This document shows positions 6,749 to 33,279 of a DNA stretch of 64,000 nt, piece by piece (within the stretch, counting starts at the first letter, position 1; each line of letters begins with the position of its first letter). Origin of the DNA: a virus (Duplodnaviria; Heunggongvirae; Uroviricota; Caudoviricetes). Location of the stretch: positions 23,562 to 87,561 of IMG/VR virus record IMGVR_UViG_3300046779_000230. One strand, 5' to 3'. The translations under genes were made by a program, and so were the position numbers. The notes beneath the pieces were generated by a model. It saw only the letters and a list, made by a program, of their open reading frames with translations, was not told the DNA's origin and searched no databases.

Positions 6749-8011
6749 TTACTTTAGACCAAATGTACCAACAACGCCTCTGTGTGGTCCAGAAGAACCT
6801 TTCATTGTCATAGTGGCAACACGAGAAATCTTACCAGTTTCTTTGTGAGTGCCACGGATAACAGCAGAGATACCTTGGTGAACAACGTGAAGATTCTCGT
6901 AGTTCTTTAGGTGTTCGCTGGCGATACTGTCTGAAGGTTTAACAACTGCCTTAGAAGAGCCATCGCTTTGCACGTGGCTGTGCGCGACTGTGTGTGGAAT
7001 ATGTGTTGGAGCAGAAACGTGATCTGTTACAAGTTTACGTAACTCTTGATCAGATTTAGTACCGATTGCTTCTGCGAACTTTTTGGCCAGCGCTTGTTTA
7101 CCAACTAGCGCAGACGCCTCAGCTTGAGAAGCACGAGTTGCTGAATGTTGAGCAAAATGCTCTTTGTCTTTTGCTTGGTCGTGAGCGTTAACAAACATCT
7201 CTAGGTGCTTGTGCAAGTTCTTTTCTTTGGCAGATAGTTTTCTGTCTGTGGCAACCAAACCAGTTAAACGAGCATGCTCGGCACGAGCCTTGTCAATACC
7301 CATTTTATCAACTTTCCACTGAGCGTGGCGGTCTTCAGCAGAACCATGATACCCAATAGTTTCCATATTGGCATGGTGGTTTTTCATCAATCCGTTAAGT
7401 GTACCAGATGATAGTCCAGCAGTTTTCTCTAGAGAGTCAAGACCTGGATTGCGATAGTTTGGTTCTTTATTAGTACCGTACTTTGCAGAAACACCATGAT
7501 GACCAACAACCTTGCCATCTTTATGTAGCGTCATAATCAAGTCAGCGTTAGAGTTAACGTCCTTGATGCCAGTAGTCTTTTCGTGGTCGCCAGCTTTTGT
7601 TGCTTTATCTGGGTTTGATGTCCAGTGGACATTACCAACATTAACACCATTACCAAGATGACCTTCTTTGGTCAAGTGCTTTAGCAACGCTTTGGCAGTA
7701 TCTTTTGAGTGGGAATCGATCTCATTATAAGCAGCATCACCAATCTTCTTTTTAAGACGGTCATGTACTTGTTGAGGAGTACCAGCGTGGTCTTCGTTCT
7801 CAGACTCAGAACGGTGGTGTTCTGGTAGAGTGCCAGCTGGATGTAAGTGTTTTGCAAGCAGCAGTTCGTGCAGCTTGCCTTTGTCGTCAGAAGAAACAGA
7901 ACTGCTTAAAGCAGCTTCTTTGAGAACTATTTTTTCTGTTAAGAAATTCTTTAATCGTAGCATATCAATCCTTTTGAATTCAGTGTTGAAATTATACATT
8001 AGATTGTACAA
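6749..8011 (-). CDS. Hypothetical hydrophilic His-rich protein
   Basis: Intact 420-aa ORF with no recognisable motif. Confidence 0.5.
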   Translation of the reverse strand: MYNLMYNFNTEFKRIDMLRLKNFLTEKIVLKEAALSSSVSSDDKGKLHELLLAKHLHPAGTLPEHHRSESENEDHAGTPQQVHDRLKKKIGDAAYNEIDSHSKDTAKALLKHLTKEGHLGNGVNVGNVHWTSNPDKATKAGDHEKTTGIKDVNSNADLIMTLHKDGKVVGHHGVSAKYGTNKEPNYRNPGLDSLEKTAGLSSGTLNGLMKNHHANMETIGYHGSAEDRHAQWKVDKMGIDKARAEHARLTGLVATDRKLSAKEKNLHKHLEMFVNAHDQAKDKEHFAQHSATRASQAEASALVGKQALAKKFAEAIGTKSDQELRKLVTDHVSAPTHIPHTVAHSHVQSDGSSKAVVKPSDSIASEHLKNYENLHVVHQGISAVIRGTHKETGKISRVATMTMKGSSGPHRGVVGTFGLK

Positions 8012-8755: not shown

Positions 8756-9361
8756 TTACCTAATAGAATTCTCCAAGAAGGCAAGAACTTTCGCTTGTTC
8801 CTCTAAGTTAGTGTTGTTAAACTCAGTAATATAGGACATCAGTTCAAAATTTGATAGCAAGTTACTATATTTAGTTTCTCTGCCTCTTAGGAATTGTTCG
8901 GACTGGTCTGAGCCACGATCCTTGTAGCGTTGCTCCAGTAGTTCTTTTGGAGCCTTGAGATACACAACAATCAACTCAGTGTTTGGCAAGTTCATACAGA
9001 ACTCCAAGAAAGATTGATTAAAGACTCGGTCACCTTCGAACAGGATGTTACAGTTGTTAGAAGCGATCCACTCTTGTAGTGGTGGTTGAACTGCCATGGA
9101 CAAGCGATCTGTACCAGCGAATAATTCACCTTCGTTGTACTTACCAAGGATGTACAAGTCATGCTCTTTATTATAGAGAGCAGACACTAACTTAGCAGGT
9201 TCAGTACCGATAAATTCTTTACCTTCCATGAACTTACGGAATAGCGTAGTCTTGCCTGTACCTGGACTTCCACCAACGGCAATGATCTTTCTAGTCTTGA
9301 CTTCGTTCTTGATCAACTTAACTTCGATTCGATCTGAAATACCAAATTTATCAATTAACAT
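8756..9361 (-). CDS. P-loop NTPase/kinase; candidate DNA-base kinase (5-HMUDK-like)
   Basis: Walker A motif AVGGSPGTGKTTL. Small kinase size (201 aa). Translationally coupled to the radical SAM gene by a 7-nt overlap. Confidence 0.4.
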   Translation of the reverse strand: MLIDKFGISDRIEVKLIKNEVKTRKIIAVGGSPGTGKTTLFRKFMEGKEFIGTEPAKLVSALYNKEHDLYILGKYNEGELFAGTDRLSMAVQPPLQEWIASNNCNILFEGDRVFNQSFLEFCMNLPNTELIVVYLKAPKELLEQRYKDRGSDQSEQFLRGRETKYSNLLSNFELMSYITEFNNTNLEEQAKVLAFLENSIR

Positions 9362-10785
9362 CTTACACCTATCATTCTCTTGTATTGTTGGAGTTTCATC
9401 TTGTTGATGGACGAAACATTGTATTTAGACTCTAGTTCATTATATCTCAGCTTTAAGATTTCGTCAATCTTAATTCCTAGATTTGCAACTGTCATGATTT
9501 GAAATTCTGCAATCTTGTTTATTGGGTCTCTACGAGACATTATAGAATTAGCGTACATGGAACATATAGTATAGTTAAGGTTCTGACTCTTTAATGTCCA
9601 TGTATTGTTGTCTGTTATTTCATATCCATAAATTTCTGGATTTAAACTAAATTCAGAACCATAGTCACCCTTGTTCTTTTTGAATAACATTAGTGGATAA
9701 ACACTTATATGGTCAACAGGATTATTTTTATCCATAATCCAATCATTGGTTTCTTCAAAATACTCTACGGTGTCATAAGGTAATCCATAGATCAAACCAA
9801 TACCTATGTTTACTTTACCATTCCACTTTTCTTTTAACCAAGACAATCTATCTTTGACTTTGTTCGGCGCGAGACTTTTACCAATGGCAATACCACTTTG
9901 CTTATTGAGCGTTTCAACTCCAAAGAAAGTGCCAACTAATCCAGCTTCTCGTAGCAAGTCAGCTTGATGTGGATACTTGTTTAACAAGTCTAGTCTAAGG
10001 TAACAAGAAAAGTTAATCTTGAAAGGCAGAGATGTGAACAGTTTGTGTATTGCTTCAATCTTGTCGTTGTCATCATTGAAGGTATCATCTGTTATGTAGT
10101 AGTTGGTACATCCAGTTGCTTCCCAAGTTTTTATCATGTCATCTCTGACTTCTTCGATGTCTCTTAAGTAAGTACCTTTCTTTTTACCAATCAAAGAATA
10201 CCCACAGAATTTACATTTGAAGATACACCCACGCGCCAACTCCAGCGGTAGAGACTCTCCGTCAAGAATAGAAAAGTCTTTTCTCCACCAATGAGTCTTG
10301 ATGTTATCCATCTTTGGCTCTGGGAATTGTTTGGAATCAAAAATCTTTGGTTGCTGTACACCATCTGCCACACCCTTTGTGTATTCAATGATAGCATCAT
10401 CTGCGTATCCTAGGATGTAAGTATCAATGCGATCATCAGAAGCCCACAAGGATCTAACACCACCATAGATCAACTGCACATTAAACTGTTTGATGTATTG
10501 AAATAGTTTGTCTACATCTGCTGGTGTCATGTGTGGAAATAGCGTTTGGTCTCCCCAGAAAAAGGTAGAAGAAAAACCAACCCATAATGTATTGTCACTG
10601 ATGTGAACACTCAATGCTTGTATGATTTCATCAACAGTAAAGTATTGAGTAAAGTCAATAACTCTAGATGTATAACCAGCGTTTTCAAGAGCAGAAGCTA
10701 TTCTGTAAGAACCCAAGTTTCTTTGGATCTGAGAATAGGTTTCTGGAGACGTTGGTCCAGCAGCAATAATAATGCAATCAATCAT
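9355..10785 (-). CDS. B12-binding-domain radical SAM enzyme (class B)
   Basis: ARGCIFKCKFCGY is the CxxxCxxC cluster in the arrangement typical of B12-binding radical SAM enzymes. The N-terminal 150 aa form a Rossmann-like domain. Length is 476 aa. Confidence 0.65.
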   Translation of the reverse strand: MIDCIIIAAGPTSPETYSQIQRNLGSYRIASALENAGYTSRVIDFTQYFTVDEIIQALSVHISDNTLWVGFSSTFFWGDQTLFPHMTPADVDKLFQYIKQFNVQLIYGGVRSLWASDDRIDTYILGYADDAIIEYTKGVADGVQQPKIFDSKQFPEPKMDNIKTHWWRKDFSILDGESLPLELARGCIFKCKFCGYSLIGKKKGTYLRDIEEVRDDMIKTWEATGCTNYYITDDTFNDDNDKIEAIHKLFTSLPFKINFSCYLRLDLLNKYPHQADLLREAGLVGTFFGVETLNKQSGIAIGKSLAPNKVKDRLSWLKEKWNGKVNIGIGLIYGLPYDTVEYFEETNDWIMDKNNPVDHISVYPLMLFKKNKGDYGSEFSLNPEIYGYEITDNNTWTLKSQNLNYTICSMYANSIMSRRDPINKIAEFQIMTVANLGIKIDEILKLRYNELESKYNVSSINKMKLQQYKRMIGVRC

Positions 10786-11804
10786 TAAAAGAATTCTTCT
10801 AAACCAACTTGAACAGGTTTCTCATCATCAAACAACCACTCTAGGTTTTCCATCTTGCCACTACGTAAGAACAATGGAAACTTTTCTTTGTCAATACCAC
10901 GCTTGGAATCTAGACGCAAGTCAATAGTTTCGTTACGGGCTTGCCACATAACATTCCAATCAATACCATGCCAACCGTCGCCTTCGCATTTGATAATCTC
11001 TTCAGCTTGGCGATCAAGGTAGTAACCAAGATAACGCCCATGATTTTCTCTAAAGATTTTCTTAAAAGAACACAGGCATGTTTCCATGGTAAAGAAATCA
11101 ATTTGGTCTGTTAGATCTGGGAATCTTCTTCGCGTTTCTTCCAGAATGTCTCTGGCTTGTACTTCAAGAGATCCATACTCGCTTCCAGTGAGTTTTCTAT
11201 CATAATCGTCATCCTTGCCAAGGGCAAGTAGTAATCCATTACGATGAGAACGGGAACCATCATAATCGTCCAACATGAGAGAAGTAGGAGTAACAAGCAC
11301 ACCAGCAGTATGTTTAAGGTGCTGAAGATAAAACCAAGTGCTGTAACGCCCAAACTTATGCAAGCTGTTTTTAAGTACTGACCACAACGCATCAAAGTTT
11401 TGCGTCTCATTATCTCCGTAGTACGATTCGAGTGTTTCACGTTGATCTTTCTTTCCAATAAACTTTTGATACGATTCGAACATGGCAGGCAAGTGACCTT
11501 TGTTCCACTTTGTATCAGTTTGATATCTTAATCGCTTGTAGTTAGCAGTATTCCACTGCTCCATTCTATCAACAGTAGCCAACTCAAAGTCAGGAAACTC
11601 ATTCATTAGAATCCAAGCTGTTGGTAGATAGTATGTGTTACCATATAACCAACACAACCACAATCGTTGTTCATCGTTGTGTTCGTATCGCTCGTTCATG
11701 TAGTTGGTAGCCCAAACAGCTGGATCGCAGTCGTCATACTTTAACGACCATGCATACCAACGAATAAAGGCTTCACGTCGATTTTGTTTTAATCTATAAT
11801 CCAT
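10785..11804 (-). CDS. Hypothetical protein; candidate aGPT-Pplase-like DNA-modification transferase. Assigned by context only.
   Basis: 339-aa ORF inside the putative modification cluster. No motif is recognised by eye. Confidence 0.3.
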   Translation of the reverse strand: MDYRLKQNRREAFIRWYAWSLKYDDCDPAVWATNYMNERYEHNDEQRLWLCWLYGNTYYLPTAWILMNEFPDFELATVDRMEQWNTANYKRLRYQTDTKWNKGHLPAMFESYQKFIGKKDQRETLESYYGDNETQNFDALWSVLKNSLHKFGRYSTWFYLQHLKHTAGVLVTPTSLMLDDYDGSRSHRNGLLLALGKDDDYDRKLTGSEYGSLEVQARDILEETRRRFPDLTDQIDFFTMETCLCSFKKIFRENHGRYLGYYLDRQAEEIIKCEGDGWHGIDWNVMWQARNETIDLRLDSKRGIDKEKFPLFLRSGKMENLEWLFDDEKPVQVGLEEFF

Positions 11805-12445
11805 TATTTTAAAAAGTCTTCAAGAGATGGCTGATCCATCAGTGCATCTCGTAGCCATGCTTTACCAACTGTATCAATAGCAGCTTGAGTCTTTGCTTTC
11901 TTTTTGTCACCCCAAGTGTAAGACTCTAAACCTTCGCGACGGAATTGTTCACGAGCTTTTTGTGGTGGTAATGCTTGTAGTGGATTTACGATGGCGTTGT
12001 CTCTGTAAGCAATTTGCTCGGCACGTGTAGCGAATAGTGGTTGGTCACTGCGGAGTGAACCTGTTGGATCAACTGCCCAGAAGACCAAACCATTGCGTAT
12101 GTGCCAGCTGACAGAGGTTGGTGTACAAGAGATTTTAAGTCGTTGGACTTTTCGTTCTTCAACTGCATATTTGATCCAAGAGTCCCAGCACTTTGACGCA
12201 TATCCCTTTCCTTCTTTACCTTCAACTGTAACGATTTCATACAGGTTTGCATAGCCATCTCGATTGAATGTGGCAAAGATTAAAGAGACAACTTCACCGT
12301 TGTCTTCGAATGCCATTGGCAGATTCTTTTCATAATTATGAAAGCGAGTCCATAATGAATGTGCAGCCGATAAGAACTTGGTGTTCTTACCAGCTGGACT
12401 TGAATCAATAATTTGTTGAACTTTAGTTGAGTTAATGAATATCAT
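11804..12445 (-). CDS. Hypothetical protein, possibly GNAT-like
   Basis: EGKGYASKCWDSWIKYAVEE weakly resembles the GNAT acetyl-CoA-binding motif A. Confidence 0.3.
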   Translation of the reverse strand: MIFINSTKVQQIIDSSPAGKNTKFLSAAHSLWTRFHNYEKNLPMAFEDNGEVVSLIFATFNRDGYANLYEIVTVEGKEGKGYASKCWDSWIKYAVEERKVQRLKISCTPTSVSWHIRNGLVFWAVDPTGSLRSDQPLFATRAEQIAYRDNAIVNPLQALPPQKAREQFRREGLESYTWGDKKKAKTQAAIDTVGKAWLRDALMDQPSLEDFLK

Positions 12446-13142
12446 GTTGATAATCTACAGCGCTTTTAATAGAGACTGCACGCAATTCCATTTTCAAGTC
12501 GCCATCAAGTTTAATGTATGTATTCATTGGAACTTCCATAGTTGGAAGAAACAATCCAGCACGTTGTGGAATATCGGCAGTAGAAGTAATTATACTACCA
12601 TTAGTCATTGTAGTCAAATATAATGGTCGTTTGCCATTACGGTAAACAGTTACCTCTTTGGTAGATGCAATAAGTTGACAAACAGCCATGGACATATTAC
12701 TGAACTCTTCTAGTGGACTTTTTGCGTGTAGCACCAATTCACTGTCGTTCTTTGTTTCAGTTTTATAACCGTACAACTCTTGCCACTTTTCTGGCAGTTC
12801 TTGGGTAATAACACCATTGTGAACAATAGCAACATTATCGTTACCCAACGGTTGGTTATATTCCAAGTCGCTAGTTGAATAACGGCAGTGTCCAATCATA
12901 TACAAGTTTCCATCTTCATTCAAGAATGATTTGAAGTTATCATTATGCATGTGTTTCTCAACGAATTGATCAGCTGGGATCGCTTCTTTGATTGTAACAA
13001 GGTTACCTTTATTCCAAGCAGGAATAAAAGAAATACCAGTGGCGTGCAAACCACGAATCTTTGATTCAACGAATACACGTTTTAAGGATTCAAAATCCTT
13101 CAGAGAAGGATTCTGTATAACTGCTCCGATAACGGCACACAT
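12432..13142 (-). CDS. Class-II (Ntn) glutamine amidotransferase domain protein, stand-alone
   Basis: N-terminal MCAVIGAV with the nucleophilic Cys2, then IGHCRYSTSD...NQPLGNDNVAIVHNGVITQEL. This parallels PurF/AsnB (GHVRYPTAG...LAHNGNLTN). Confidence 0.6.
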   Translation of the reverse strand: MCAVIGAVIQNPSLKDFESLKRVFVESKIRGLHATGISFIPAWNKGNLVTIKEAIPADQFVEKHMHNDNFKSFLNEDGNLYMIGHCRYSTSDLEYNQPLGNDNVAIVHNGVITQELPEKWQELYGYKTETKNDSELVLHAKSPLEEFSNMSMAVCQLIASTKEVTVYRNGKRPLYLTTMTNGSIITSTADIPQRAGLFLPTMEVPMNTYIKLDGDLKMELRAVSIKSAVDYQHDIH

Positions 13143-14536
13143 TAGAAGAAACTTTCAAGTGAATTAGATTTATCTGACTCTGGGTGATACTTCAACAACA
13201 CTTCTGCGCCAAGTTTTTTCTCGCAGTAGTCATACCACTCTTGACTTTCCCACATACCAGCAGAAACACCATTCCAAAGATGACGCTCAGAGCCGTCTTC
13301 GTTTCGGTGACCTGCATGCTCTTTGTTCAAACGACGAGATTCAACAAACTCATAACGGCAGTCTTCATACTCTTTTGAACCAAGTTCAAGCATCTTTTCA
13401 CGGAAATAACAAACCAGTGAAATACGTTCGGCTTCTTCATCCAACAATTCAATTGGAGTGTTACCGTGCATAACTTCGTGGTTGTTGATCAACAGCAAGT
13501 CGCCTGGACGTACATTGACAGCAACGCGATACTCTGGAGCAATTAGATAACCACCCTTGTAATTGCCGTTGTTAGAAAGAACCAACAAGTTAGAAAGACC
13601 ACTATTCAAGTCGCCTGCATCAAAGTGTGCTGCAGTACGGAATGTTTTGTTAACAGTGATTGTAGTGAATGGAGTTTCTGGAACCAAGAATTGTGGATCA
13701 AGTTTCTTGGCAGCTTCCATTTGATTATTGTAACGCCATGGCATCAACTCTTTAAAACCTTTGGCAAGAGTCTGTAGGAATGGGAATGCCATCTCAAACT
13801 TCTCACGATTCTTTTCAGTATAAGAAGTTGCACGACCATAAGGGATACGTGGGTAACGATCAAACCAACCAGCAATACCAGAGAACACACCGTTGGCATA
13901 AGTTGTTTGACAAACATATTTCTGCACAACACGCTTGGCTTCGGCACGTTGTTCATCCAAACTCAATTTACGAGTACGCTCAACCCACTCATCAAAAGTG
14001 AAATTGTCCTTTTTAACCGCCTGAATACTCCAAACATTGTTCTTATTAGAAGGCTGTTCTTTCTTGTTGGCGTGTTGACGCTTTAGTTCTTCGATTGGAT
14101 CTTCACCAAAGATGTTGGCTTTGGGATTAGAAAAGTAATCAATCACATCGTACTCATACTCAGTGACCCACTCTCTGTTACCCAACTTGTCTTTTCGTGG
14201 ACCAGCTGCGATGCCACGGTTTTGAGTCTCAACAGCTGCTTCACGTAGCCCAACATATGCAGCCAACTGTTCTTCTTTTGAGAAGAAGTTCTTACGGAAC
14301 TTAAATGCAATACGCATTTCATCCGTACCTTTAGGGCAGCTGGAGCAGTCTTTGTCTGTGTCGCAAGATGCTTGTTGAGCGATATCGCAGTTTACTGGCA
14401 TGTAAACGTCGGCGTCATAATCAACTAGAATATCGTAATGTGATTCGTCTACAAACTGACCCAGAAGATGAGAACAGTCGTGCTTTTTATCAGCCACGAT
14501 AATTTTAACATTTCTACCTTCATCTATTTTACTCAT
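13142..14536 (-). CDS. 2OG-Fe(II) dioxygenase domain protein (TET/JBP-like candidate) with an N-terminal Cys-rich region
   Basis: HxD at AAHFDAGD, a distal His at NNHEVMHGNTP, and an RxS pair at ERISLV. This is the HxD...H...RxS facial triad with a 2-oxoglutarate-binding Arg. Confidence 0.55.
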   Translation of the reverse strand: MSKIDEGRNVKIIVADKKHDCSHLLGQFVDESHYDILVDYDADVYMPVNCDIAQQASCDTDKDCSSCPKGTDEMRIAFKFRKNFFSKEEQLAAYVGLREAAVETQNRGIAAGPRKDKLGNREWVTEYEYDVIDYFSNPKANIFGEDPIEELKRQHANKKEQPSNKNNVWSIQAVKKDNFTFDEWVERTRKLSLDEQRAEAKRVVQKYVCQTTYANGVFSGIAGWFDRYPRIPYGRATSYTEKNREKFEMAFPFLQTLAKGFKELMPWRYNNQMEAAKKLDPQFLVPETPFTTITVNKTFRTAAHFDAGDLNSGLSNLLVLSNNGNYKGGYLIAPEYRVAVNVRPGDLLLINNHEVMHGNTPIELLDEEAERISLVCYFREKMLELGSKEYEDCRYEFVESRRLNKEHAGHRNEDGSERHLWNGVSAGMWESQEWYDYCEKKLGAEVLLKYHPESDKSNSLESFF

Positions 14537-14547
14537 TTATCTTCTCC

Positions 14548-15954
14548 TTAAAACTTGAAACTGTCGTAATTGTCTTCTCTATGTATTCGTTTACCAAAAG
14601 AGCTTTTATCAAAAACAGGTCCATCATCCTTTTCCTGTCCAGAATCTGACAATCCTTGCTGTGCAGATTCTTCAACATCATATAACTTCATCTTGGAACG
14701 ATCGATACCAACTACGAATCGTTTATAGAAGCTAGGGTCATTATAACGGTTCTTCAATTGCTTGACGATAATCTGATTCAAGGCTTCTAACTCTTCGTTT
14801 GATACCAACGCAAACATAAAGTCGGCAGTGGCAGGTAGACCAAACGATTCAGATGTATCTTCAAGACCTGGGTCTGAATTGGAATAACCAGAACGAGTAG
14901 TTTGTGTAGCCGAAAGAATCGGAACATTATACTCAACAGCTAATCCACGTAGTTCTTCTGCAATGCTCTTGATATATGTATAAGAGTTTACAGAACCACC
15001 TTGCTTCATACGCTGAGACGCACAAATGTTCAAATAGTCAATCATAATAATATCAGGGGCGAAATCTCGTTTAAGTTTCAGTTCTTCCAACAGCGCTCTA
15101 AAGTGACCAGCATGAGCACTTGCAGTTGGATATTCTTTGATGATCAGTTTACCTTTGGTCTTGTTGGCAATCTTTTGAAGACGATTATCAAAGATGTCTT
15201 TATCAACAACCTTCAATTCATCCATTGTCAAGTTCAACAAGTTGGCATCGATACGTTCAGCGATACGTTCTTCAGCCATTTCCATGGTAATGTAAAGCAC
15301 ATTACGCCCTTGGGTCAAACATCCAGCAGCCACGTGACACATGAACAATGATTTACCAACACCAGTACCAGCCAGTGCAATGTTTAGAGTTTTCTTGGAC
15401 AGACCACCTTTAGTGATCTTATTGAACATCTCTAAGTCAAAGGCAATCTTTTCTTCAACGCGATGGTAGTAATCAAAACGTGCATCATGATCTCCCAAGT
15501 AATCGTGACCAACGTGACTGTCAAAACAAACAGACAACGCTTCTGAAAGGATACTTGGGATAGCGTCTTGTGTGTGTTGCTTGTCTCTGCCGTCAATAAT
15601 TTTGATTGAATCAACAATCGCGTTATAGACAGCTTTGTCTTTACAAAACTTTTCTGTGTTAGTGACTAACCAATCACTGTTGATTGGAGCTTGTGCTAAT
15701 CCATCAATGACTTCGTTAATCTCAACCAATTCTTTATCGATAAGATCAGTACGGTTACTGACCTCAATGGACAAGATTTCTTTGGTTGCTGGTTTATTAT
15801 ATTTGTTAAAGAATTCGATAATCTCTGAAATGATCACCGACTCTTTTCTGTCGGCAAAGTAACTCTTCTTAAGGAATGGAATTACTTTGCGACAGTACTG
15901 TTCATCATAAATTAAATTTGCTAGAATCGTCTGTTCAATTCTCATCAATACCAC
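14548..15954 (-). CDS. 41: Replicative DNA helicase, DnaB / T4 gp41 family
   Basis: RecA-like Walker A motif ALAGTGVGKSLFMCHVAAG. Length 468 aa against 475 aa for T4 gp41. Position next to uvsX is as in T4. Confidence 0.85.
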   Translation of the reverse strand: MVLMRIEQTILANLIYDEQYCRKVIPFLKKSYFADRKESVIISEIIEFFNKYNKPATKEILSIEVSNRTDLIDKELVEINEVIDGLAQAPINSDWLVTNTEKFCKDKAVYNAIVDSIKIIDGRDKQHTQDAIPSILSEALSVCFDSHVGHDYLGDHDARFDYYHRVEEKIAFDLEMFNKITKGGLSKKTLNIALAGTGVGKSLFMCHVAAGCLTQGRNVLYITMEMAEERIAERIDANLLNLTMDELKVVDKDIFDNRLQKIANKTKGKLIIKEYPTASAHAGHFRALLEELKLKRDFAPDIIMIDYLNICASQRMKQGGSVNSYTYIKSIAEELRGLAVEYNVPILSATQTTRSGYSNSDPGLEDTSESFGLPATADFMFALVSNEELEALNQIIVKQLKNRYNDPSFYKRFVVGIDRSKMKLYDVEESAQQGLSDSGQEKDDGPVFDKSSFGKRIHREDNYDSFKF

Positions 15955-17606: not shown

Positions 17607-18194
17607 TTATGTTTTCTTAGAACGTGGCACATCGAACACGAATGTAACTCTGACATTATCACCAATGTTCTTTGCACCGTGTGGTAATTTATTGTTAAAC
17701 CAAAGCAAAGTTCCAGGCTCTACTGTAACAGATTCATCTCCCACAGTGTATATGTATCTTCCTTGAATTGAAAGATGATAGCGATCCTTTGTTCGGTAAT
17801 AATCACCGATGTCAATGTGTGTTCCAACTACACCACCAACTGGCAGTGATAAGAAACCACATCGACTGACTTTCTTGAAGTGTCGTTTGACAAAACCAAT
17901 AACTTCAGTGTGATGTTTGATTGCTGGAGTTGGAATGCACAGTTCGGTATCTCCAACATAATCATCTATGTTTTCAATACCACCCATAATTAACTGCAAC
18001 ACACCAGCTTGAACATCTGGGAATCCATACGTAAGCATGGACTTAACGCCATCAACTCGCGTTTGAATTCCCCAGTCTTCTGGATGTTGCTCCAACTGCG
18101 CCAAAATCTTTGACACATTGAGTCCAGTTTTGATTATCTTAATGTTATCCAAAGAAGTCTTCCAGTGAACTTTCTTCTTGCGTCTTCCAACCAA
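17607..18194 (-). CDS. Cupin-fold protein, possibly an Asp/Asn beta-hydroxylase-like 2OG oxygenase
   Basis: THIDIGDYY ... LLWFNNKLPHGAKN is a His/Asp pattern compatible with the AspH family. Overlaps the DNA polymerase start by 50 nt. Confidence 0.35.
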   Translation of the reverse strand: MVGRRKKKVHWKTSLDNIKIIKTGLNVSKILAQLEQHPEDWGIQTRVDGVKSMLTYGFPDVQAGVLQLIMGGIENIDDYVGDTELCIPTPAIKHHTEVIGFVKRHFKKVSRCGFLSLPVGGVVGTHIDIGDYYRTKDRYHLSIQGRYIYTVGDESVTVEPGTLLWFNNKLPHGAKNIGDNVRVTFVFDVPRSKKT

Positions 18195-25845: not shown

Positions 25846-26013
25846 TTATTCTGTTTGTGCAGCAGCTGCTTGTTCAGCACGCAACTGATCGATCTGTGCA
25901 TCACCTTGTTGCTTGATCTTCAAGATAAGAGCAACAACTTCATCAAATGGGTGCTTGCCCAATACGCGAAGAATAGTATTTACGTCAGATGGATTCAATT
26001 CAAGTTTAATCAT
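25846..26013 (-). CDS. Small ORF (55 aa) coupled to the regA stop by an ATGA overlap
   Basis: Manual translation gives MIKLELNPSDVNTILRVLGKHPFDEVVALILKIKQQGDAQIDQLRAEQAAAAQTE*. It is below the ORF-track size cutoff. Confidence 0.4.
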   Translation of the reverse strand: MIKLELNPSDVNTILRVLGKHPFDEVVALILKIKQQGDAQIDQLRAEQAAAAQTE

Positions 26014-26429
26014 TTTGTTTTCTTTCCTATGTTATATTTAGCTACCAATTCCCATTGATCCTTTTCTTTGTAAGAAACGACCTTAATTTGAGACAAAGAT
26101 GCTTTTTGTTCAGACTTCTTAGTATCTAGGATCTTCAATAAATCCCAATCTTGAAGCAATGAAGCAATAGCATTTCTACGCTCTACATCACCTTGGGTAA
26201 TGTTCGATTCTTTACCGTCCAATGCAAATAGTTCTTTGAAGTGTACGATAAAGTATCTGCCTTGCTTGTGTAAGATATGGCAAGACTGATATAATTTATT
26301 CTCTTTTCTGGAAGCGATACCAATTCTGGTAAGAGTTTCGCGGACTTTTAGGAAGTTGTCTGGTTCTGGCAGACTCACCTCAAGCATGGACTCAGGAGTC
26401 CAATCGTAGTAAACCATCTCGATAGTCAT
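26010..26429 (-). CDS. regA: Translational repressor RegA
   Basis: DNFLKVRETLTRIGIASRKENKLYQSCHILHKQGRYFIVHFKEL parallels T4 RegA EDFLKVKETLTRMGIANNKDKVLYQSCHILQKKGLYYIVHFKEM. The true start is probably the internal MLEVSL, giving 26010..26387. Confidence 0.85.
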   Translation of the reverse strand: MTIEMVYYDWTPESMLEVSLPEPDNFLKVRETLTRIGIASRKENKLYQSCHILHKQGRYFIVHFKELFALDGKESNITQGDVERRNAIASLLQDWDLLKILDTKKSEQKASLSQIKVVSYKEKDQWELVAKYNIGKKTK

Positions 26430-26806
26430 TATTTTCCACCTTTATATAATTTTTCTTTTATCATAGTAAGTTGTTCATCTGAAAGGACAGTTAGTGCCTC
26501 TTTCGCCTTTTCGTCAGAGTACTTAAAGTACTCTTTAACTAAGAGCATGGATTCTGAGCTGGCATCTTTTTTAGCCCACTTACTAAATCGCTTGCGCTTA
26601 GGTATAGTATTTAGGAAAAAGAAAAACTGCCAGTCCTTATCGATGAAGCTGAGACGGTTCATCTCATTAGCATACATGACGGTGTCTGGAAAATATGATA
26701 ATCCTCGGTTTACAATATAAGGTAAGTAGTCCTTTGAAGCTGTTGGGTCTTCGAATAAATTTCTTTTGTTATCACAAATCGCATTAATAAAGTCAAAAGG
26801 TGTCAT
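26429..26806 (-). CDS. 62: Clamp-loader small subunit, gp62-like
   Basis: Positioned between gp44 and regA as in T4. The PKRKRFSKWAKK block resembles T4 gp62 as recalled from memory. Confidence 0.5.
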   Translation of the reverse strand: MTPFDFINAICDNKRNLFEDPTASKDYLPYIVNRGLSYFPDTVMYANEMNRLSFIDKDWQFFFFLNTIPKRKRFSKWAKKDASSESMLLVKEYFKYSDEKAKEALTVLSDEQLTMIKEKLYKGGK

Positions 26807-26976
26807 TCGTTAAGTACCCAATTCTCTGCTGCGTCTTCAGCTTTGTCTAGACTGTGATATGTTTCGTACAATTCTTCACCAGAAACAGTGTCAGTGAATA
26901 CTACTTGGTAGTCACCAGTGATGATTGACTCAACTGTTGCTATTCTTGTTCCTTGTTGATATGTGCTAATTTCCAT
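26803..26976 (-). CDS. Small acidic ORF (57 aa), coupled at both ends
   Basis: Manual translation gives MEISTYQQGTRIATVESIITGDYQVVFTDTVSGEELYETYHSLDKAEDAAENWVLNE*. Its stop overlaps the gp62 ATG. Confidence 0.4.
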   Translation of the reverse strand: MEISTYQQGTRIATVESIITGDYQVVFTDTVSGEELYETYHSLDKAEDAAENWVLNE

Positions 26977-27300
26977 TTAAATAAATCCTACTTCTTTTAG
27001 GTTTTCTGATGTTGCATTGAACTTCTTGTTAGGGAATCTCTTTGCAAGTTCTTTTTCTAACTCGTCACGAGTCATGCCTTGACCCATAAACTCATCACTT
27101 TCAGAATTAAATACATACAGGGCTTCGCCATGTTTTTCGATCTTAATCGGAATGGTGTTTTCTTTGATAGTATTTACCATGTCTGTTTCAAGGTCATCTA
27201 GCATAGATGACACAATTTTCTTGGCATAACGCTCACGTTGTACCCATCCAAAAACAAAACCCAAAACAAACGCGATAACAAAAGCAATAACGAGTTCCAT
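26977..27300 (-). CDS. Small membrane protein
   Basis: N-terminal transmembrane helix MELVIAFVIAFVLGFVFGWV. Confidence 0.45.
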   Translation of the reverse strand: MELVIAFVIAFVLGFVFGWVQRERYAKKIVSSMLDDLETDMVNTIKENTIPIKIEKHGEALYVFNSESDEFMGQGMTRDELEKELAKRFPNKKFNATSENLKEVGFI

Positions 27301-27309
27301 ATATGTATC

Positions 27310-28284
27310 TCACTTAAATTTACAGTTAGCCATGATCTCAGTAAGAGCAGCCATGATATTCAATTCTTGATCAGCCACGAAAGCTGCCTTGTATTGATAG
27401 TCAGCCAAGATAAGAACCATCTGTGGAATGCTAGGTGGTTCCATGTAAGTAGTAGATGTATCATAAAACTGACGGAAAAGACCAGTAATATCAGCATCTG
27501 AATTCTTTGCAACCCAAGAGCGAACTTCAGTAAAGTTCTTTTCTTTCAAGAATCCAATCAGAGTCTTGTAAGATTCTTCTGACATATTGATAAGAATACC
27601 AGAATCAATCTTACCAGCCACAGAGTATTTCTGTAGTTCATTCAAGATTCGGCGATAGTCAGGAAAGTGTTTGGTAGTTAGCTCAGCAACAGACTTTGGA
27701 TCAAACTCAATACCTTCTTGCTTCAAGATTTTAGTTGCACGTTTAAAGAAAGTAGCAGCAATCTCTTGCTTGTCTTTGTTCTCAATCTTAAAATCTACGT
27801 TGGCACATCGTGAACGCAGTGGCTCAATGATTTTATTCTTGAAGTTACATGTAAAGATAAAGCGACAGTTAGCAGAGAATTCTTCCATGAAAGAACGCAG
27901 TGCTGGTTGAACAGAATCTGATGTCATGTAATCAGCTTCGTCGATAATAACAACCTTCTTGGCATCAGTCAAAGAAACAGTCGAAGCAAATGCCGTGATT
28001 GTAGTTCTAAGAGTATCAATCTTACGACCCTCGTCAGAACCGTTGATCATCAGATACTCTGCACCAATTTCATTACACAAGGCTTTAGCCACAGTTGTCT
28101 TACCAACACCAGCTGTTCCAGAAAACAAAAAGTGTGGTAGTTCACCTTGAGCAATATATTCCCTGAATGTCTTTTTCAGAGACTCTGGCAGAACACAATC
28201 ATCAATTTTCTGTGGGCGATACTTTTCAACCCACAGAAATTGTTCTTCACGGCTATCAATCATTATAAAAACTCCATTATTCAA
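27310..28284 (-). CDS. 44: Clamp-loader large subunit gp44 (AAA+, RFC-like)
   Basis: WVEKYRPQKIDDCVLP and GTAGVGKTTVAKALC parallel T4 gp44 LEQKYRPSTIDECILP and GTGKTTVAKALC. Confidence 0.9.
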   Translation of the reverse strand: MNNGVFIMIDSREEQFLWVEKYRPQKIDDCVLPESLKKTFREYIAQGELPHFLFSGTAGVGKTTVAKALCNEIGAEYLMINGSDEGRKIDTLRTTITAFASTVSLTDAKKVVIIDEADYMTSDSVQPALRSFMEEFSANCRFIFTCNFKNKIIEPLRSRCANVDFKIENKDKQEIAATFFKRATKILKQEGIEFDPKSVAELTTKHFPDYRRILNELQKYSVAGKIDSGILINMSEESYKTLIGFLKEKNFTEVRSWVAKNSDADITGLFRQFYDTSTTYMEPPSIPQMVLILADYQYKAAFVADQELNIMAALTEIMANCKFK

Positions 28285-29734
28285 ATTTCAAAACATATCT
28301 ATTCTGCTCTAGCAAAGTCTTGTGATCAATCAATGCTAATTTAGAAAAGTCACTCAAGTAATTATTATACATCGACATTTGATTGGAGACAACTTTTTCT
28401 CCATGTGACTGCATAAAATTACTACTAATAGTATTCACATCAAACAAACCAAGACCATCCATAACTTGTATCCAGTTTGTTTCACTAAACATAGTCCAAT
28501 TACCAGAAAAGTACATTCTAGTTGGCATTGCACTCTTGAATGTTTCTAAGTTTTCTCTAATAAAATCTGTCTTGGTTATTTCGTTTTTCACTGTCTTCCA
28601 AAAATCACTATCTGACCGTTTTGTCATATAATGTAGTTGAACGAAATCAACAATATTATCAAATGAAGAAATAAACTCTTTATTGTAATGGTCAGAAGCC
28701 TTTCGGTTGACTACCCAATACTCAAAAGACTGAACAAACCCCATAGCTTGTAAAATAGAATTACCAATACTAGATGCTTCTAAAGGTTCAACGAACGATG
28801 CAGACAATCCAATAGAAAGACAATTATTAATCCAAAATCTATCTACTCTACCAGCTTCAAATTTAATATCTTTGGCAATATTAACTTGTTCGGTGTATAC
28901 AGATTGTACCTCATCATGTGCTTGAGATGAATTTATAAAATCATCACAGAATACATATCCATTACCATAACGACCACGTGTGGAAATTCTCCAATTCCAT
29001 CCAGAAGACAATGCTCTAGATAATGTATATGGAGATAACTGAGAGACATCATCAGTTGGGAATGCCAATGCATGATTCATTGGAAGATATTTCTTATAAG
29101 AAATCCATTTAGCTCCAAGTTTAGAAGCTAAGAATTTCTTAAATCCAGTGCTATCAATAAAGAAATCAGCATCGAATACTTCACCAGATTCAGAAACTAC
29201 AGAACCAATATCGCCATTCTCTAAGATATTTACATCTGTTAAAGTTGTCTTGACGATGTTAATATCGCGCTCTATACATTTCTTATGTAAGTATTCATTT
29301 AACTTAAATGTATTAAAATGGTATTGGAATGTTGTGTTAATTCCACCAACCATTCTAACCATATCTGTGCCAACGGTAACATCAACAAGTTGAATACCTT
29401 TGTGTATACAAGTCTTTTCTAATAAGTGGTCTTCTTGGGTTTGCCAAAAAGGTTGACCAATCGCATGAAAATAGCTTTTACCATCTCCATTCCAATTCTC
29501 AAACTTGATGCCTTTCTTCAAGGCACCATCAGTCTCGCGAACTAATTCTCGATTGTCGAGACCTACATAATCACAGAACTGAGACCAATGCTCAGTCGAT
29601 CCCTCTCCAACCCCAATAATACCAATATCTGTAGATTCGATAATGGTTATGGGGTAGAGTGGATATGCTTTACGTATAATCAAGGCAGAAATCAGACCTG
29701 CAGTCCCGCCACCTACGATTACAAATTTCTTCAT
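28277..29734 (-). CDS. Flavin-dependent halogenase (tryptophan-halogenase family)
   Basis: IVGGGTAGLISA is the FAD GxGxxG motif. GVGEGS, SSGWNWRIS (the WxWxI halogenase signature) and ASFVEPLEASSIG (the conserved FxEPLES with the catalytic Glu) are all present. Confidence 0.75.
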   Translation of the reverse strand: MKKFVIVGGGTAGLISALIIRKAYPLYPITIIESTDIGIIGVGEGSTEHWSQFCDYVGLDNRELVRETDGALKKGIKFENWNGDGKSYFHAIGQPFWQTQEDHLLEKTCIHKGIQLVDVTVGTDMVRMVGGINTTFQYHFNTFKLNEYLHKKCIERDINIVKTTLTDVNILENGDIGSVVSESGEVFDADFFIDSTGFKKFLASKLGAKWISYKKYLPMNHALAFPTDDVSQLSPYTLSRALSSGWNWRISTRGRYGNGYVFCDDFINSSQAHDEVQSVYTEQVNIAKDIKFEAGRVDRFWINNCLSIGLSASFVEPLEASSIGNSILQAMGFVQSFEYWVVNRKASDHYNKEFISSFDNIVDFVQLHYMTKRSDSDFWKTVKNEITKTDFIRENLETFKSAMPTRMYFSGNWTMFSETNWIQVMDGLGLFDVNTISSNFMQSHGEKVVSNQMSMYNNYLSDFSKLALIDHKTLLEQNRYVLKFE

Positions 29735-29737
29735 ATA

Positions 29738-30394
29738 TTAAAAGTCGAATGTAGAATCAGATTCAACAGCAACGTAATACACTAGATCACCAGCAGACTT
29801 AAAGCGAGAGATTTTCTTGCTGGAAATACTAACAGTATATTCACCTGGGAGCATCTTAAGGTTTTCAACTTTCAAGTTGACTTTGAAAGACTTGTCTGTG
29901 GATCCAACTGGCTCGCTGAAAGAGTTACCAGTTGCATTCTTTTTATCGCCAACTACAGCAGTAATAGTAGTGCCGTCACCAACAATAGAAACGTCGGATG
30001 CACGAAGAACTGAAGCAGTCTTGTGAATCATGTTCAACATGGCAGCAGTCATTGTGAACTCGATGTCAGCATTCGGGAATGTGATAGACTTTTGCGGAGC
30101 AGTCAAGACAGTTGCATCAGCTGCAAAGTATTTGATGCTCATGTTACCTTGCTTGATAGTAACATACTTTGTATCAAAGTCCAATTCAGGATCTTCGAAC
30201 AACGACATGGCACCAAGGAATTCGTTTAGATCGTAGATACCAAAGTCTGGGAATGTCTCAGAAACAACAGCGTCTGCCATCACGTTCTTTTGAGCAGAGA
30301 TTGTTGCCAGTTTATTACCTTGCTTCAACAGAAGGTTTCCATTGATGCCTGCAAAGTTCTTAAACAGGGCAAGGGTTTCTTTTGATAGTTTCAT
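29738..30394 (-). CDS. 45: Sliding clamp gp45
   Basis: MKLSKETLALFKNFAGINGNLLLKQG parallels T4 gp45 MKLSKDTTALLKNFATINSGIMLKSG. The C-terminal YYVAVESDSTFDF parallels NYVVALEADSTHDF. Confidence 0.95.
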   Translation of the reverse strand: MKLSKETLALFKNFAGINGNLLLKQGNKLATISAQKNVMADAVVSETFPDFGIYDLNEFLGAMSLFEDPELDFDTKYVTIKQGNMSIKYFAADATVLTAPQKSITFPNADIEFTMTAAMLNMIHKTASVLRASDVSIVGDGTTITAVVGDKKNATGNSFSEPVGSTDKSFKVNLKVENLKMLPGEYTVSISSKKISRFKSAGDLVYYVAVESDSTFDF

Positions 30395-30428: not shown

Positions 30429-30457
30429 ATTATGCCTGAAAACCAAGTTTCAGGCAA
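30429..30457 (-). promoter_or_regulatory. Putative promoter TTGCCT, 17-nt spacer, CATAAT, overlapping a perfect 9-bp hairpin at 30433..30456
   Basis: The minus strand reads TTGCCTgaaacttggttttcaggCATAAT. The hairpin tgcctgaaa/tttcaggca spans the -35 box and the spacer, between the rubredoxin stop and the gp45 start. Confidence 0.4.
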
Positions 30458-30464
30458 ATTATTT

Positions 30465-30596
30465 TCACTCCATCAGGACGTAGTCGTTCTTGGAAACACC
30501 ACATTCTGGGCAGTTGACTTCATCTGGAAGACTCAACCAATCAGCTTCTGATAATTGGTGACCACAAACGATACAAACATAAATTCGTTCAGACAT
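30465..30596 (-). CDS. Rubredoxin (43 aa)
   Basis: Manual translation gives MSERIYVCIVCGHQLSEADWLSLPDEVNCPECGVSKNDYVLME*. It has the two CxxCG knuckles (VCIVCG, NCPECG) and the rubredoxin-like spacing. Its start overlaps the rubrerythrin stop (TAATG). Confidence 0.6.
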   Translation of the reverse strand: MSERIYVCIVCGHQLSEADWLSLPDEVNCPECGVSKNDYVLME

Positions 30597-31045
30597 TATA
30601 GGCTCTCCTTAACTTTTTGGTATGCTTCAGCGTGACGCTTTTCAACTTTAGCAAGGGCAGCGAATCGCTTTTCAGCCAATGCCAACACTTTCTTGAACTG
30701 CTCAGCGTGTTCTTTAGATTCAGCTGCTTGGTAGCGAGCTTCTAACATAGCTTCGTCGTTCTTTTCCAACTCAGCTTCTTCTTCCATGCGTGGATACATT
30801 TCTGTAAACTCATGGGTCTCACCGAGAATGGCAAGATGCAAGCATTCTTTTGTAGATGGTTTACCGATCAGCAACTCAAGATGACCCCAAGCGTGAAGGA
30901 TCTCTTGATCAGCTGTATGTTCAAAGTGTTTAGCAACATCCTCGAACCCTTCAGCGCGTGCCAACTTGGCGAAATAACGATACTTGATATGAGCCATGGA
31001 TTCGCCAGCCAATGCGCTCTCAAGGTTTTTAATTGTTACAGACAT
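30596..31045 (-). CDS. Rubrerythrin / ferritin-like diiron protein
   Basis: Repeated E..H pairs (EILHAWGH, ETHEFTEMYPRMEEE) in a predicted four-helix protein of 149 aa. Confidence 0.5.
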   Translation of the reverse strand: MSVTIKNLESALAGESMAHIKYRYFAKLARAEGFEDVAKHFEHTADQEILHAWGHLELLIGKPSTKECLHLAILGETHEFTEMYPRMEEEAELEKNDEAMLEARYQAAESKEHAEQFKKVLALAEKRFAALAKVEKRHAEAYQKVKESL

Positions 31046-31059
31046 ATTTTCCTTTTAAT

Positions 31060-31593
31060 TTACCAGTCAGAACTTGGACCAGAGTCAGAACTTGATGAGT
31101 AAGAACTCGATGAATCAGAACTTGAACTCCAAGATGATTTTGGGCTAGATGTATCAGAATCACCCCAGCCATATGATGATTCATTTGTTTTTACGCTAAC
31201 AGATCCAGTGTCTTCATTTTTAGTGACAACACCAGAAATACTGTCAGAATTAGAATTAAGCAGTGTATTAATAACAACAGCAGTCATAACACCATCCATA
31301 AAACCATCATCGTGAGATTTAACAGATTGTGTTGGTGATGGAGCATAAGAAACAGTTGTTTCTTTTCCACGAGGTGGAACAGCGCGAGTATTATCTACAG
31401 CTACAGCCTTCATTTTAGCTTGAAAGTTTTTACGAGACTGACGAGCAATTTCGATTTCTCGAAGACGCTCTTGCTCAGCTTGTTCTTCTTTAAACTTTTT
31501 ACGACGTTGATTGATTCGGAGTTGAGCACGAATCGCCAGAATGGCTAAAGCCACCCCAGCAATCGCCACAGCAATTACTAGGATGTCGTCCAT
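31060..31593 (-). CDS. Membrane protein with a Ser-rich C-terminal tail
   Basis: N-terminal transmembrane helix ILVIAVAIAGVALAILAI. C-terminus SSSSDSSSSYSSSSDSGPSSDW. Coupled to the SPFH gene by an ATGA overlap. Confidence 0.45.
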   Translation of the reverse strand: MDDILVIAVAIAGVALAILAIRAQLRINQRRKKFKEEQAEQERLREIEIARQSRKNFQAKMKAVAVDNTRAVPPRGKETTVSYAPSPTQSVKSHDDGFMDGVMTAVVINTLLNSNSDSISGVVTKNEDTGSVSVKTNESSYGWGDSDTSSPKSSWSSSSDSSSSYSSSSDSGPSSDW

Positions 31594-32390
31594 TATTTAC
31601 CTACAACAACTTGACCACGGAAGTCGAATGGAATAACAACAGTGTTTACTTTACCGTTCTTAATACCTTCGGCGATATCAGCTTGAGCCTTTGCTTGCAT
31701 ATAAGCAATTGATTGAGCGCCTTGATTAGCCAACGCTTGCATACGACGAGCCTCAGCTTCAGCAGTCTTTACTTCAACTTCTTTTTGCTTGAATTCATTC
31801 TTTGAACGAACCAATGCGTTGGCAGATTCAACGACGCTATCAGCAGGCACTACGTTACGTACAAGAACCTGAGTAATAGTGATACTACCATCCAGCTTTT
31901 CGTCAGTCAGTGTCTTTTGAATTTGTTCTTTGATAGACAATTCCATTGCTTGACGAGCATCAGCCATTTCCAACGCTTCGTATTTACGCGCTTCTTTGTA
32001 GATAGCGTTACGTGCAGCATTGTGGATATAGTTAAACATCAAGTAAGTATCGCCATCGTGTTTAACGTGGAATGCCTTTGACTTGGTGTTATAAAGTTCA
32101 GCAACCTGAGACTGATTCAAGCTGTAGATAACGATGGCATCAAAGTCTTTCATTGTGCTGTTATCTTTGGCAATTGGAGTCATGTCGTCCAATTTCACGT
32201 TAACATCTTTGACAGGGAATGTCAGAACATCACCAACCAAGACTTGATTGAAAGAACCTGGAAGCAATTCCTCATTCTTAACTTGCTTATCAAAACCAAC
32301 TCGCAAACCAACTTCACCAGTTTCAATACGGGTGCAACCAGTCAGCAATACAGCGCCAGCCAAAATAGCCATAGAGACAAGACGTTTCAT
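31593..32390 (-). CDS. SPFH/band-7 (prohibitin/HflKC-like) lipoprotein
   Basis: Signal peptide with lipobox LLTGC, followed by a long charged coiled-coil typical of SPFH proteins. Confidence 0.55.
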   Translation of the reverse strand: MKRLVSMAILAGAVLLTGCTRIETGEVGLRVGFDKQVKNEELLPGSFNQVLVGDVLTFPVKDVNVKLDDMTPIAKDNSTMKDFDAIVIYSLNQSQVAELYNTKSKAFHVKHDGDTYLMFNYIHNAARNAIYKEARKYEALEMADARQAMELSIKEQIQKTLTDEKLDGSITITQVLVRNVVPADSVVESANALVRSKNEFKQKEVEVKTAEAEARRMQALANQGAQSIAYMQAKAQADIAEGIKNGKVNTVVIPFDFRGQVVVGK

Positions 32391-32663: not shown

Positions 32664-32956
32664 TTTTTAATTCTTTCTAAGAATTCTTGAGAGAGTTTAT
32701 TGTGTTGTTCAATAGAACAATAAAGAATCCACTCACAAGGAACTTTTACATTATCTTTATCCAATAAGAAATAACCAATAAGGGTATAAGGAATACCTTC
32801 ATCGATATTTCTTTCGATCGAAAAGACATCTAAGTTATCCCAATTGACAACAAAGTTACACGAAGCAAGATCAGCCTCGCGTAGATTGTCATTTTCTAAT
32901 TTCAAAGACTTAATAGTCTCTCGAGCTTCACGTAGTTCGCTAAACAAGTTCAACAT
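32660..32956 (-). CDS. Hypothetical protein
   Basis: Intact ORF. Confidence 0.4.
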   Translation of the reverse strand: MLNLFSELREARETIKSLKLENDNLREADLASCNFVVNWDNLDVFSIERNIDEGIPYTLIGYFLLDKDNVKVPCEWILYCSIEQHNKLSQEFLERIKK

Positions 32957-33279
32957 TATACATCCTTTGAATACTTCACATCATGCTCATACAAGAAAGC
33001 CAAGCAACACATAGCGTGAGCCAAGTGGTGAATGCCAGACTCTGGATCAACTTGTTCGCCCATTTTCCATGCCCACACATGACGCTCAAGCGCAGCAAAG
33101 TAACGTCGCTTAGAATCAGGAACCAACTGCCAATTATCAGGCGCATATTTTTGAGCACCAAAGGTCAAAACTTTGACCATCTCTGCTTGAGCAAGAGGTG
33201 GAATCAGATCATAGCGAAGTTTATCGCCATCAAACTTACGACCATCGGGTGTAGCTTCTTTTTGTTTTTTAGTAACCAT
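32956..33279 (-). CDS. Conserved phage protein; the DGDKLRYDLIP...GAQKY..NW motif suggests a nucleotide pyrophosphohydrolase-associated N-terminal domain
   Basis: Motif resemblance only. Confidence 0.3.
   Translation of the reverse strand: MVTKKQKEATPDGRKFDGDKLRYDLIPPLAQAEMVKVLTFGAQKYAPDNWQLVPDSKRRYFAALERHVWAWKMGEQVDPESGIHHLAHAMCCLAFLYEHDVKYSKDV

Follow-up and report, generated by a model that had tools for sequence, protein, structure and literature searches.

The DNA considered here is a stretch of 64,000 nucleotides (nt), hereafter the window, which covers positions 23,562 to 87,561 of the IMG/VR virus record IMGVR_UViG_3300046779_000230 (Caudoviricetes). At 28277..29734 on the minus strand it carries an open reading frame (ORF) of 485 amino acids (aa) that encodes a putative flavin-dependent halogenase. 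Upstream of this gene lies that of the gp45 sliding clamp (29738..30394, minus strand; phrog_223, E 3e-70; PF09116), and downstream that of the gp44 clamp-loader large subunit (27310..28263, minus strand, 317 aa from the ATG at 28263; phrog_168, E 6e-129; PF21328, Gp44_lid). A tightly packed gene string follows gene 44 on the same strand: orf107 (26977-27300, 107 aa), orf57 (26803-26976, 57 aa), gp62 (26429-26806; PF16790) and regA (26010-26429; PF01818). By Pfam and PHROG the gene order in the window is 45 - halogenase - 44 - two small ORFs - 62 - regA. The ORF list, Pfam and PHROG thus all place the 485-aa ORF between gp45 and gp44 homologues, as the initial annotation of this DNA, which named no strand, had it. 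The same annotation regarded the 45-44-62-regA block as otherwise invariant, and this view cannot be kept. In the window orf107 and orf57 split 44 from 62, and breaks in the block are frequent among related cyanomyophages. P-TIM68 carries six ORFs, SpeD among them, between 45 and 44 and another five, with PsbN and a methyltransferase, between 44 and 62; inserts break up the block in S-CAM9 and S-8S53 too.

An overlap of 8 nt between the halogenase gene and gene 44 had also been reported; it exists only with the mechanical first start of the gene 44 ORF, TTG 28284. Four observations favour ATG 28263 instead. The clamp-loader homology starts at residue 9 of the ORF counted from TTG 28284; ATG 28263 is preceded at a distance of 8 nt by a GGAG Shine-Dalgarno sequence (28272..28275, minus strand); on an identical contig, gene 44 was called independently with a product of 317 aa, i.e., from the ATG; and TGGAGT...ATGATTGA follows the halogenase stop in the window and in its uncultured relatives L099, L004, L005 and L059, while in L008 it comes one or two bases later. 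The start of gene 44 is therefore probably ATG 28263, with TTG 28284 not used, and the two genes are likely separated by a spacer of 13 nt that holds the GGAG. On the other side, 3 nt separate the gp45 stop from the halogenase ATG, and the halogenase start falls 1-13 nt from the gp45 stop in all nine alleles examined. The 3-nt spacing suggests that the halogenase gene is translationally coupled to gene 45.

Transcription of the halogenase gene together with the replication genes, as proposed in the initial annotation, is probable in view of the tight packing of the string from 45 to regA and of a coding-strand scan of this string that found no convincing intrinsic terminator. The coding strand carries one weak 5-bp hairpin, located inside the halogenase ORF. 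A 9-bp hairpin (30433-30456) with a promoter-like TTGCCT-17-CATAAT upstream of gene 45 (30429..30457, minus strand) might conceivably mark the start of a 45-halogenase-44 transcription unit; promoter and terminator scans of the region gave counts not above those of shuffled controls. At the 3' end of the halogenase gene there is an 11/12 match to a sigma-70-like promoter, TTGAAA-18-TATAAT (28262-28291, minus strand), which is probably due to chance because its -10 hexamer overlaps the start codon of gene 44. The T4 late-promoter motif TATAAATA shows no enrichment and has no copy near the locus.

On sequence and predicted fold, the ORF product is unambiguously a member of the flavin-dependent halogenase family. 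It matches PF04820 (Trp_halogenase) with 332 bits against a cut-off of 21 (E 8e-99), residues 3-430 of the protein aligning with positions 1-444 of the 458 in the model, and phrog_2928, 'tryptophan halogenase', with E 2e-101. Among PDB entries, the best single-sequence match (phmmer) is PrnA with E 4.5e-62. An AlphaFold2 model built on 68 homologues has a mean predicted local distance difference test score (pLDDT) of 93.2 and a predicted template-modelling (TM) score of 0.92. It contains the two-module fold of PrnA-type halogenases, and Foldseek aligns it with PrnA, PyrH, RebH and Thal at TM scores of 0.84-0.89 (E about 1e-39). Family and fold thus bear out the identity first assigned to the gene.

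The four motifs quoted in the initial annotation are all present. Conservation was counted over 68 family members. The GxGxxG motif for flavin adenine dinucleotide (FAD) reads GGGTAG (residues 8-13), and G8, G10 and G13 are kept in 68/68. GVGEGS occupies residues 41-46 and FVEPLEAS residues 314-321. WxWxI corresponds to W246-N-W248-R-I250, both Trp and the Ile being invariant in 68/68; W246 and W248 are the equivalents of PrnA W272 and W274. The loss of the catalytic Lys/Glu pair had been named as a sign of a non-halogenating FAD monooxygenase, and both residues turned out to be in place. PrnA K79 corresponds to K73, found in 68/68, and PrnA E346 to E319, found in 66/68 with Gln in the other two. 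These equivalences agree across phmmer, hmmsearch and MAFFT alignments. The Lys, the Glu and the two blocking Trp are the features that separate halogenases from monooxygenases (PMC8407142).

Some departures from the canonical motifs weigh against a working halogenase. The residue after WxWxI, canonically Pro, is S251 in the window protein; the family counts at this position are 38 P, 21 S and 9 A. PrnA S347 and G349 are replaced by A320 and S322, both invariant in the 68 relatives, so the tunnel/halide motif F-x-x-P-x-x-S-x-G reads F314-V-E-P317-L-E-A320-S-S322 (Ser to Ala, Gly to Ser). A review accepts variants of the tunnel motif at the Gly position only, and the Ser-to-Ala change is not covered by it (PMC8407142). 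The departures have counterparts in solved homologues, with EPLEATG in 9LU2 and ESTS in 9LUQ. One could then imagine a flavoprotein that does not halogenate at all, either a monooxygenase or an oxidase generating H2O2 or HOX, an idea to which the peroxide-scavenging genes adjoining gene 45 in the window, L099 and L025 also lend some weight. Such genes are, however, absent from the halogenase-bearing L004, L005, L007, L008 and L011, and the Lys, the Glu and both blocking Trp are invariant or nearly so. We regard this alternative as distinctly improbable.

The peroxide-related genes fill a second variable slot, on the far side of gene 45. In the window it holds a 149-aa protein with a rubrerythrin diiron domain (30596-31045, minus strand) and a 43-aa CxxC...CPxC ORF (30465-30596, minus strand). 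The ATG of the latter overlaps the rubrerythrin stop, and the pair looks like a split rubrerythrin. The same slot of L099 (1237-2282) contains AhpC-like and AhpD/CMD-like genes, as does L025 at 4216-5258. Set against the nearly identical backbones of the window and L099, the difference amounts to a non-orthologous exchange of predicted peroxide-scavenging modules. A general functional link between the halogenase and peroxide genes was considered and rejected, because the five halogenase-bearing contigs named above lack such genes.

In PrnA, the residues H101, F103, Y443, Y444, E450, F454, W455 and N459 clamp the indole or bind the amino acid moiety of the substrate. The PDB entries 4Z43 and 4Z44, which are the PrnA substrate-scope mutants E450K and F454K, fit these roles. 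In the MAFFT alignment with PrnA, F103 becomes I92, Y443 N412, Y444 W413 and E450 T419, and F454 and W455 are deleted. The family-profile search aligns PrnA through residue 475 and reveals in the phage family an 8-residue deletion that spans F454/W455; the deletion is common to 9LUQ and 9LU2. With a profile-based search of the PDB, the best matches also shift to these two short enzymes. The function-level (equivalog) models of NCBIfam gave only sub-threshold matches to unrelated flavoenzymes. Any implied specificity for tryptophan is thus at odds with the substitution or deletion of F103, Y443, E450, F454 and W455. Since several tryptophan-binding residues of PrnA are missing, the substrate is probably something other than free L-tryptophan.

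A genuine free L-tryptophan halogenase like PrnA, RebH and PyrH, supplying halotryptophan for some phage-directed metabolite, would agree with PrnA being the best single-sequence PDB match and sharing the fold, and relatives are annotated 'tryptophan halogenase' in their sources. The retention of PrnA H101 and N459 as H90 and N420 favours such an enzyme as well and leaves some room for an indole-type or even a tryptophan-derived substrate. The pocket substitutions and deletions speak the other way, as do the length of the protein (485 aa vs. 511-554 aa in the solved PrnA, PyrH, RebH and Thal chains), the preference of the profile search for 9LUQ and 9LU2, the want of a function-level NCBIfam match and the absence of downstream pathway genes nearby. 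On this evidence a PrnA-like activity seems unlikely. By analogy with BrvH, Xcc4156 and VirX1, a small molecule of the indole or phenol type, or else the side chain of a peptide, is the more likely substrate. BrvH, annotated as a Trp halogenase, brominates indole and not tryptophan, which is ascribed to its missing side chains for gripping the amino acid moiety (PMC7754283).

The PrnA-type tryptophan halogenases (PrnA, RebH, PyrH and Thal) thus share with the window protein the fold, the FAD module, the tunnel and the catalytic Lys and Glu; the window protein differs from them in that it lacks the tryptophan-clamping residues, is about 25-65 residues shorter and has no biosynthetic gene cluster around it. 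Orphan short bacterial halogenases (BrvH 6FRL, Xcc4156 6Y1W, 2PYX, 9LUQ and 9LU2) have the same fold and align over the full length, but they are cellular and only about 24-30% identical to the window protein. Cellular homologues of the orphan type are often linked to TonB-receptor and SapC genes (PMC2938197). For the PDB entries 9LUQ, 9LU2 and 9LTB a literature search found no publication.

To our knowledge, VirX1 is the sole biochemically characterised viral flavin-dependent halogenase. This enzyme of cyanophage Syn10 is active, prefers iodide and accepts a broad range of non-tryptophan arenes (PMC8407142). VirX1 (PDB 6QGM) and the window protein both belong to variant A of the flavin-dependent halogenases, are viral and have the catalytic Lys and Glu, yet the two are distant: the phmmer E of 7e-33 for VirX1 is the weakest of the 30 PDB matches, its profile E is 2e-59, and the identity to the Syn10 gene is ~27%. 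Neither the iodide preference nor the trimeric state of VirX1, nor a wide-open active site, can be transferred to the window protein.

Halogenase genes of T4-like cyanophages have been reported since 2005 (PMC1079782, PMC2984593, PMC3037559), and a count over 153 cyanophage genomes found them in 20 (PMC10452541). The window gene falls in one family with the prnA genes of cyanomyophages and pelagimyophages (P-SSM2, S-H38, S-SCSM2R, HTVC008M; PHROG 2928), which are likewise aquatic T4-like phages. Homologues were found in 66 isolate phage records, most of them from cyanomyophages and one from HTVC008M, all at about 40% identity or less; the best of them are 35-40% identical over 82-97% of the length. 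By these comparisons, the window protein is a distinct and distant member of the known phage halogenase set. The protein database contains more than 6800 relatives, many of them on contigs of 150-190 kb.

No cellular donor came to light: isolate bacterial genomes reach 26-32% identity at most, and the matches at 36-43% identity come from contigs of metagenome-assembled genomes (MAGs), at least one of which is really phage. This contig, L115 (NZEU01000035.1, 'MAG: Porticoccaceae bacterium MED754'), has a 40%-identical halogenase between UvsW and gp47. The contig is 118 kb long and, judging by the homologues of UvsW, gp47 and gp46 that surround the halogenase, evidently stems from a T4-like phage.

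The arrangement 45-halogenase-44 recurs in about 20 uncultured relatives (L003-L015, L017, L018, L025/L026, L059, L060, L073 and L099), and the truncated L016 shows halogenase-44. In all loci fetched from IMG/VR and other assemblies whose halogenase shares 56% identity or more, the gene stands directly upstream of gene 44, with gene 45 preceding where the contig reaches; the synteny thus persists while the halogenase diverges to 56-60% identity. Homologues at 46-51% identity lie elsewhere, in a gp15-adjacent island with three further halogenase paralogues and several 2-oxoglutarate (2OG)-Fe(II) oxygenases, an arrangement described for cyanophages by Iyer et al. (PMC2938197). Unlike these metagenomic relatives, whose accessory islands often hold tandem paralogues, the window has a single gene between 45 and 44. 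Three or four tandem paralogues were seen in L027, L028 and L029 (6001-12663) and in L022 and L023 (2373-7425); in L027-L029 the paralogues are interspersed with genes of 2OG-Fe(II) oxygenases, a NUDIX protein and DUF6445, and gp15 is adjacent.

A survey that took the clamp loader, not the halogenase, as its anchor covered 76 IMG/VR relatives with both genes 45 and 44. The gap between the two genes ranges from 9 to 1525 nt, and its cargo is varied. In most of the closest relatives (77-82% gp44 identity) 45 abuts 44 with a gap of 18-63 nt, and other relatives have inserts of 200-1400 nt. The halogenase occupies the junction in only four of the relatives found in this way; in a fifth, L063, a fragment of a halogenase lies at the edge of the contig. 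Other cargo includes a GIY-YIG homing endonuclease (L096, 3988-4464), a 2OG-FeII_Oxy_5 oxygenase (L058, 3820-4473), a MazG-like protein (L050, 4026-4286) and further ORFs of unknown function. In this group of phages, the 45|44 junction is a general hotspot for insertions, and the halogenase gene is an optional accessory cassette of patchy distribution, absent from most close relatives. The position is therefore not exceptional, contrary to what the initial annotation conveyed, as P-TIM68, S-CAM9 and S-8S53 illustrate along with the survey. The situation resembles the hyperplastic regions of T4-type phages, where accessory ORFs stand between core genes and their content varies among close relatives. 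The homing endonuclease at the same junction in L096, as in T4-type cassette shuffling, hints at a means of cassette movement.

An extra ORF of ~108 aa (MKHKGTPLTSTLNNEWMFKKLW...), for which no Pfam match was found, stands between the halogenase and gene 44 in one sub-lineage, in L007 and L011 at 7492-7815 and also in L009-L018. An ORF resembling it fills the 45|44 gap in the halogenase-less L042 and L092.

Since unrelated cargo enters the hotspot, the position near replisome genes says little about function. This bears on the notion that the enzyme acts on nucleotides or DNA bases, which could appeal to its place between replisome genes 45 and 44 and to a gene cluster at 8756-14536 of the window, where all genes are on the minus strand. 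The cluster encodes a P-loop nucleotide kinase3 (8756-9361), a radical SAM protein (9355-10785), an amino-acid:DNA transferase ADDT (10785-11804), a GNAT protein (11804-12445), a glutamine amidotransferase (12432-13142) and a Tet/JBP 2OG dioxygenase (13142-14536), and a gp41-like helicase (14548-15954) adjoins it. It looks like a pathway of TET-initiated cytosine DNA hypermodification, from 5-methylcytosine to 5-hydroxymethylcytosine and on to a further adduct. The cargo of the junction in relatives is nevertheless unrelated (GIY-YIG, 2OG oxygenase, MazG-like protein, SpeD in P-TIM68), and the 46-51% identical homologues reside in gp15-adjacent islands with 2OG oxygenases. We also know of no precedent for this halogenase family acting on nucleic acids. 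An action on nucleotides or bases is extremely improbable.

The comparison of the window with L099 resolves the exchange of the cassette. The clamp and clamp loader of the two are 100% identical in protein and 95-100% in DNA, whereas the halogenases share 58% protein identity and the DNA identity across the ORF is 40-85%. Identity falls off precisely at the start codon of the halogenase gene and is restored directly behind its stop codon. The L099 halogenase is a whole-ORF allelic replacement from start to stop codon, and the spacer with the GGAG of gene 44 marks the downstream boundary of the swapped cassette. This goes beyond T4-type cassette shuffling in that it is resolved to the swap of one whole ORF for a 58%-identical homologue on a 95-100% identical DNA backbone. 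Similar contrasts are seen between L004 and L008 (flanks 94-96% identical, halogenases 66%) and between L005 and L059 (98-100% and 82%). At least six allele types exist, at most 73% identical to one another. Variation among nine alleles is concentrated at residues 91-135, 151-190, 331-350, 406-420 and 436-465, and there is hardly any in the FAD, tunnel and catalytic segments. In PrnA, the counterparts of residues 91-105 and 406-420 are the stretches that bear F103 and Y443-N459.

The ratio of nonsynonymous to synonymous substitution rates (dN/dS) of the halogenase gene is 0.087 for the window vs. L003, 0.10 for L004 vs. L005 and 0.06 for L007 vs. L011. These pairs have unsaturated synonymous sites; distant allele pairs are unusable for the ratio owing to saturated dS, and in them dN is about two times as high for the halogenase as for genes 44 and 45. 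Judged by these ratios, the gene is under purifying selection that would keep it functional, contrary to the idea of a 'transient gene' voiced for the prnA of P-SSM2. In 2005 that gene was proposed to be a passenger (PMC1079782), and for the window gene, too, a transient, functionless passenger left by illegitimate recombination would sit well with the patchy distribution and absence from most of the closest relatives, with the hotspot location and with a G+C content of 0.344 against a window mean of 0.394 (z = -1.8). Yet every syntenic locus has an intact ORF, dN/dS lies at 0.06-0.10, the catalytic residues are invariant over alleles only 56-73% identical, and the tight coupling to the gp45 stop is retained in all alleles. 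A mere passenger is thus very unlikely.

Taken together, it is likely that the gene encodes a working two-component flavin-dependent halogenase, probably with a substrate other than free L-tryptophan, carried as exchangeable accessory cargo at the 45|44 junction; sequence comparison and the structural model are the grounds for this. The mechanism would follow that of the family (reviewed in PMC8407142). A host flavin reductase would supply reduced FAD (FADH2), which would bind the GxGxxG Rossmann module and react with O2 and halide to give hypohalous acid (HOX). The tryptophans of WxWxI would hold the substrate away from the flavin, and HOX would pass through a tunnel of ~10 Å, lined by the FVEPLEASS segment, to Lys73 and Glu319, which would direct the electrophilic halogenation of an electron-rich aromatic substrate. 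The accessory gene itself would be exchanged between phages as a whole-ORF allele at the recombination-prone junction. No flavin reductase domain was found in the 46 window ORFs scanned with Pfam, which is why the enzyme would rely on a host reductase. In other members of the family, host reductases can replace a dedicated partner reductase (PMC8407142).

No near-identical DNA was found in isolated phages. The clamp loader shares about 61% identity with its marine cyanomyophage counterparts, and the capsid protein is 64-65% identical alike to proteins of cyanomyophages, Pelagibacter phages and Methylophilales phages. These similarities point to an uncultured lineage of the aquatic T4-like group. 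An attempt to assign a host failed, the capsid being equally close to three phage groups and psbA being absent from the window. PADLOC defence models gave no match. Among other genes, all on the minus strand, are those of a ferritin-like protein (1587-2027), a cupin or Asp-Arg hydroxylase-like protein between gp43 and UvsX (17607-18194), an SPFH/Band-7 protein (31593-32390) and a protein with the N-terminal domain of dATP/dGTP diphosphohydrolase (32956-33279).

The locus reveals neither a new kind of enzyme nor a link to DNA replication. Halogenases of phages were known before, and flavin-dependent ones are abundant in aquatic T4-like phages; at this locus the optional cassette is swapped whole between phages that are otherwise nearly identical. 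Added to the known picture are evidence from sequence that the enzyme would be functional, a likely non-tryptophan pocket and whole-ORF allelic replacement at a hotspot. The result speaks against the early view of such genes as non-functional passengers.

The pattern of alleles may reflect balancing or diversifying selection, or only recombination among lineages. A more far-reaching thought, speculative and on the whole rather doubtful, is that the halogenase slot is a balanced or frequently exchanged polymorphism of the arms-race type, its divergent alleles circulating on interchangeable backbones within a wild phage population and tracking strain-variable molecules of hosts or competitors. 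If this were true, the variation in the segments that in PrnA line the substrate site would fit a varied aromatic signal, toxin, peptide or defence-related metabolite, the halogenase would be part of the phage-host arms race rather than of generic auxiliary metabolism, and the neighbouring slot with rubrerythrin or AhpC/AhpD could belong to the same adaptive module. In any case, one backbone with very different halogenase alleles and an empty site in close relatives constitutes a natural experiment. The alleles offer a panel of naturally diversified enzymes for biocatalysis, and the locus could guide comparative infection, metabolomic or biochemical work on the role of the halogenase.

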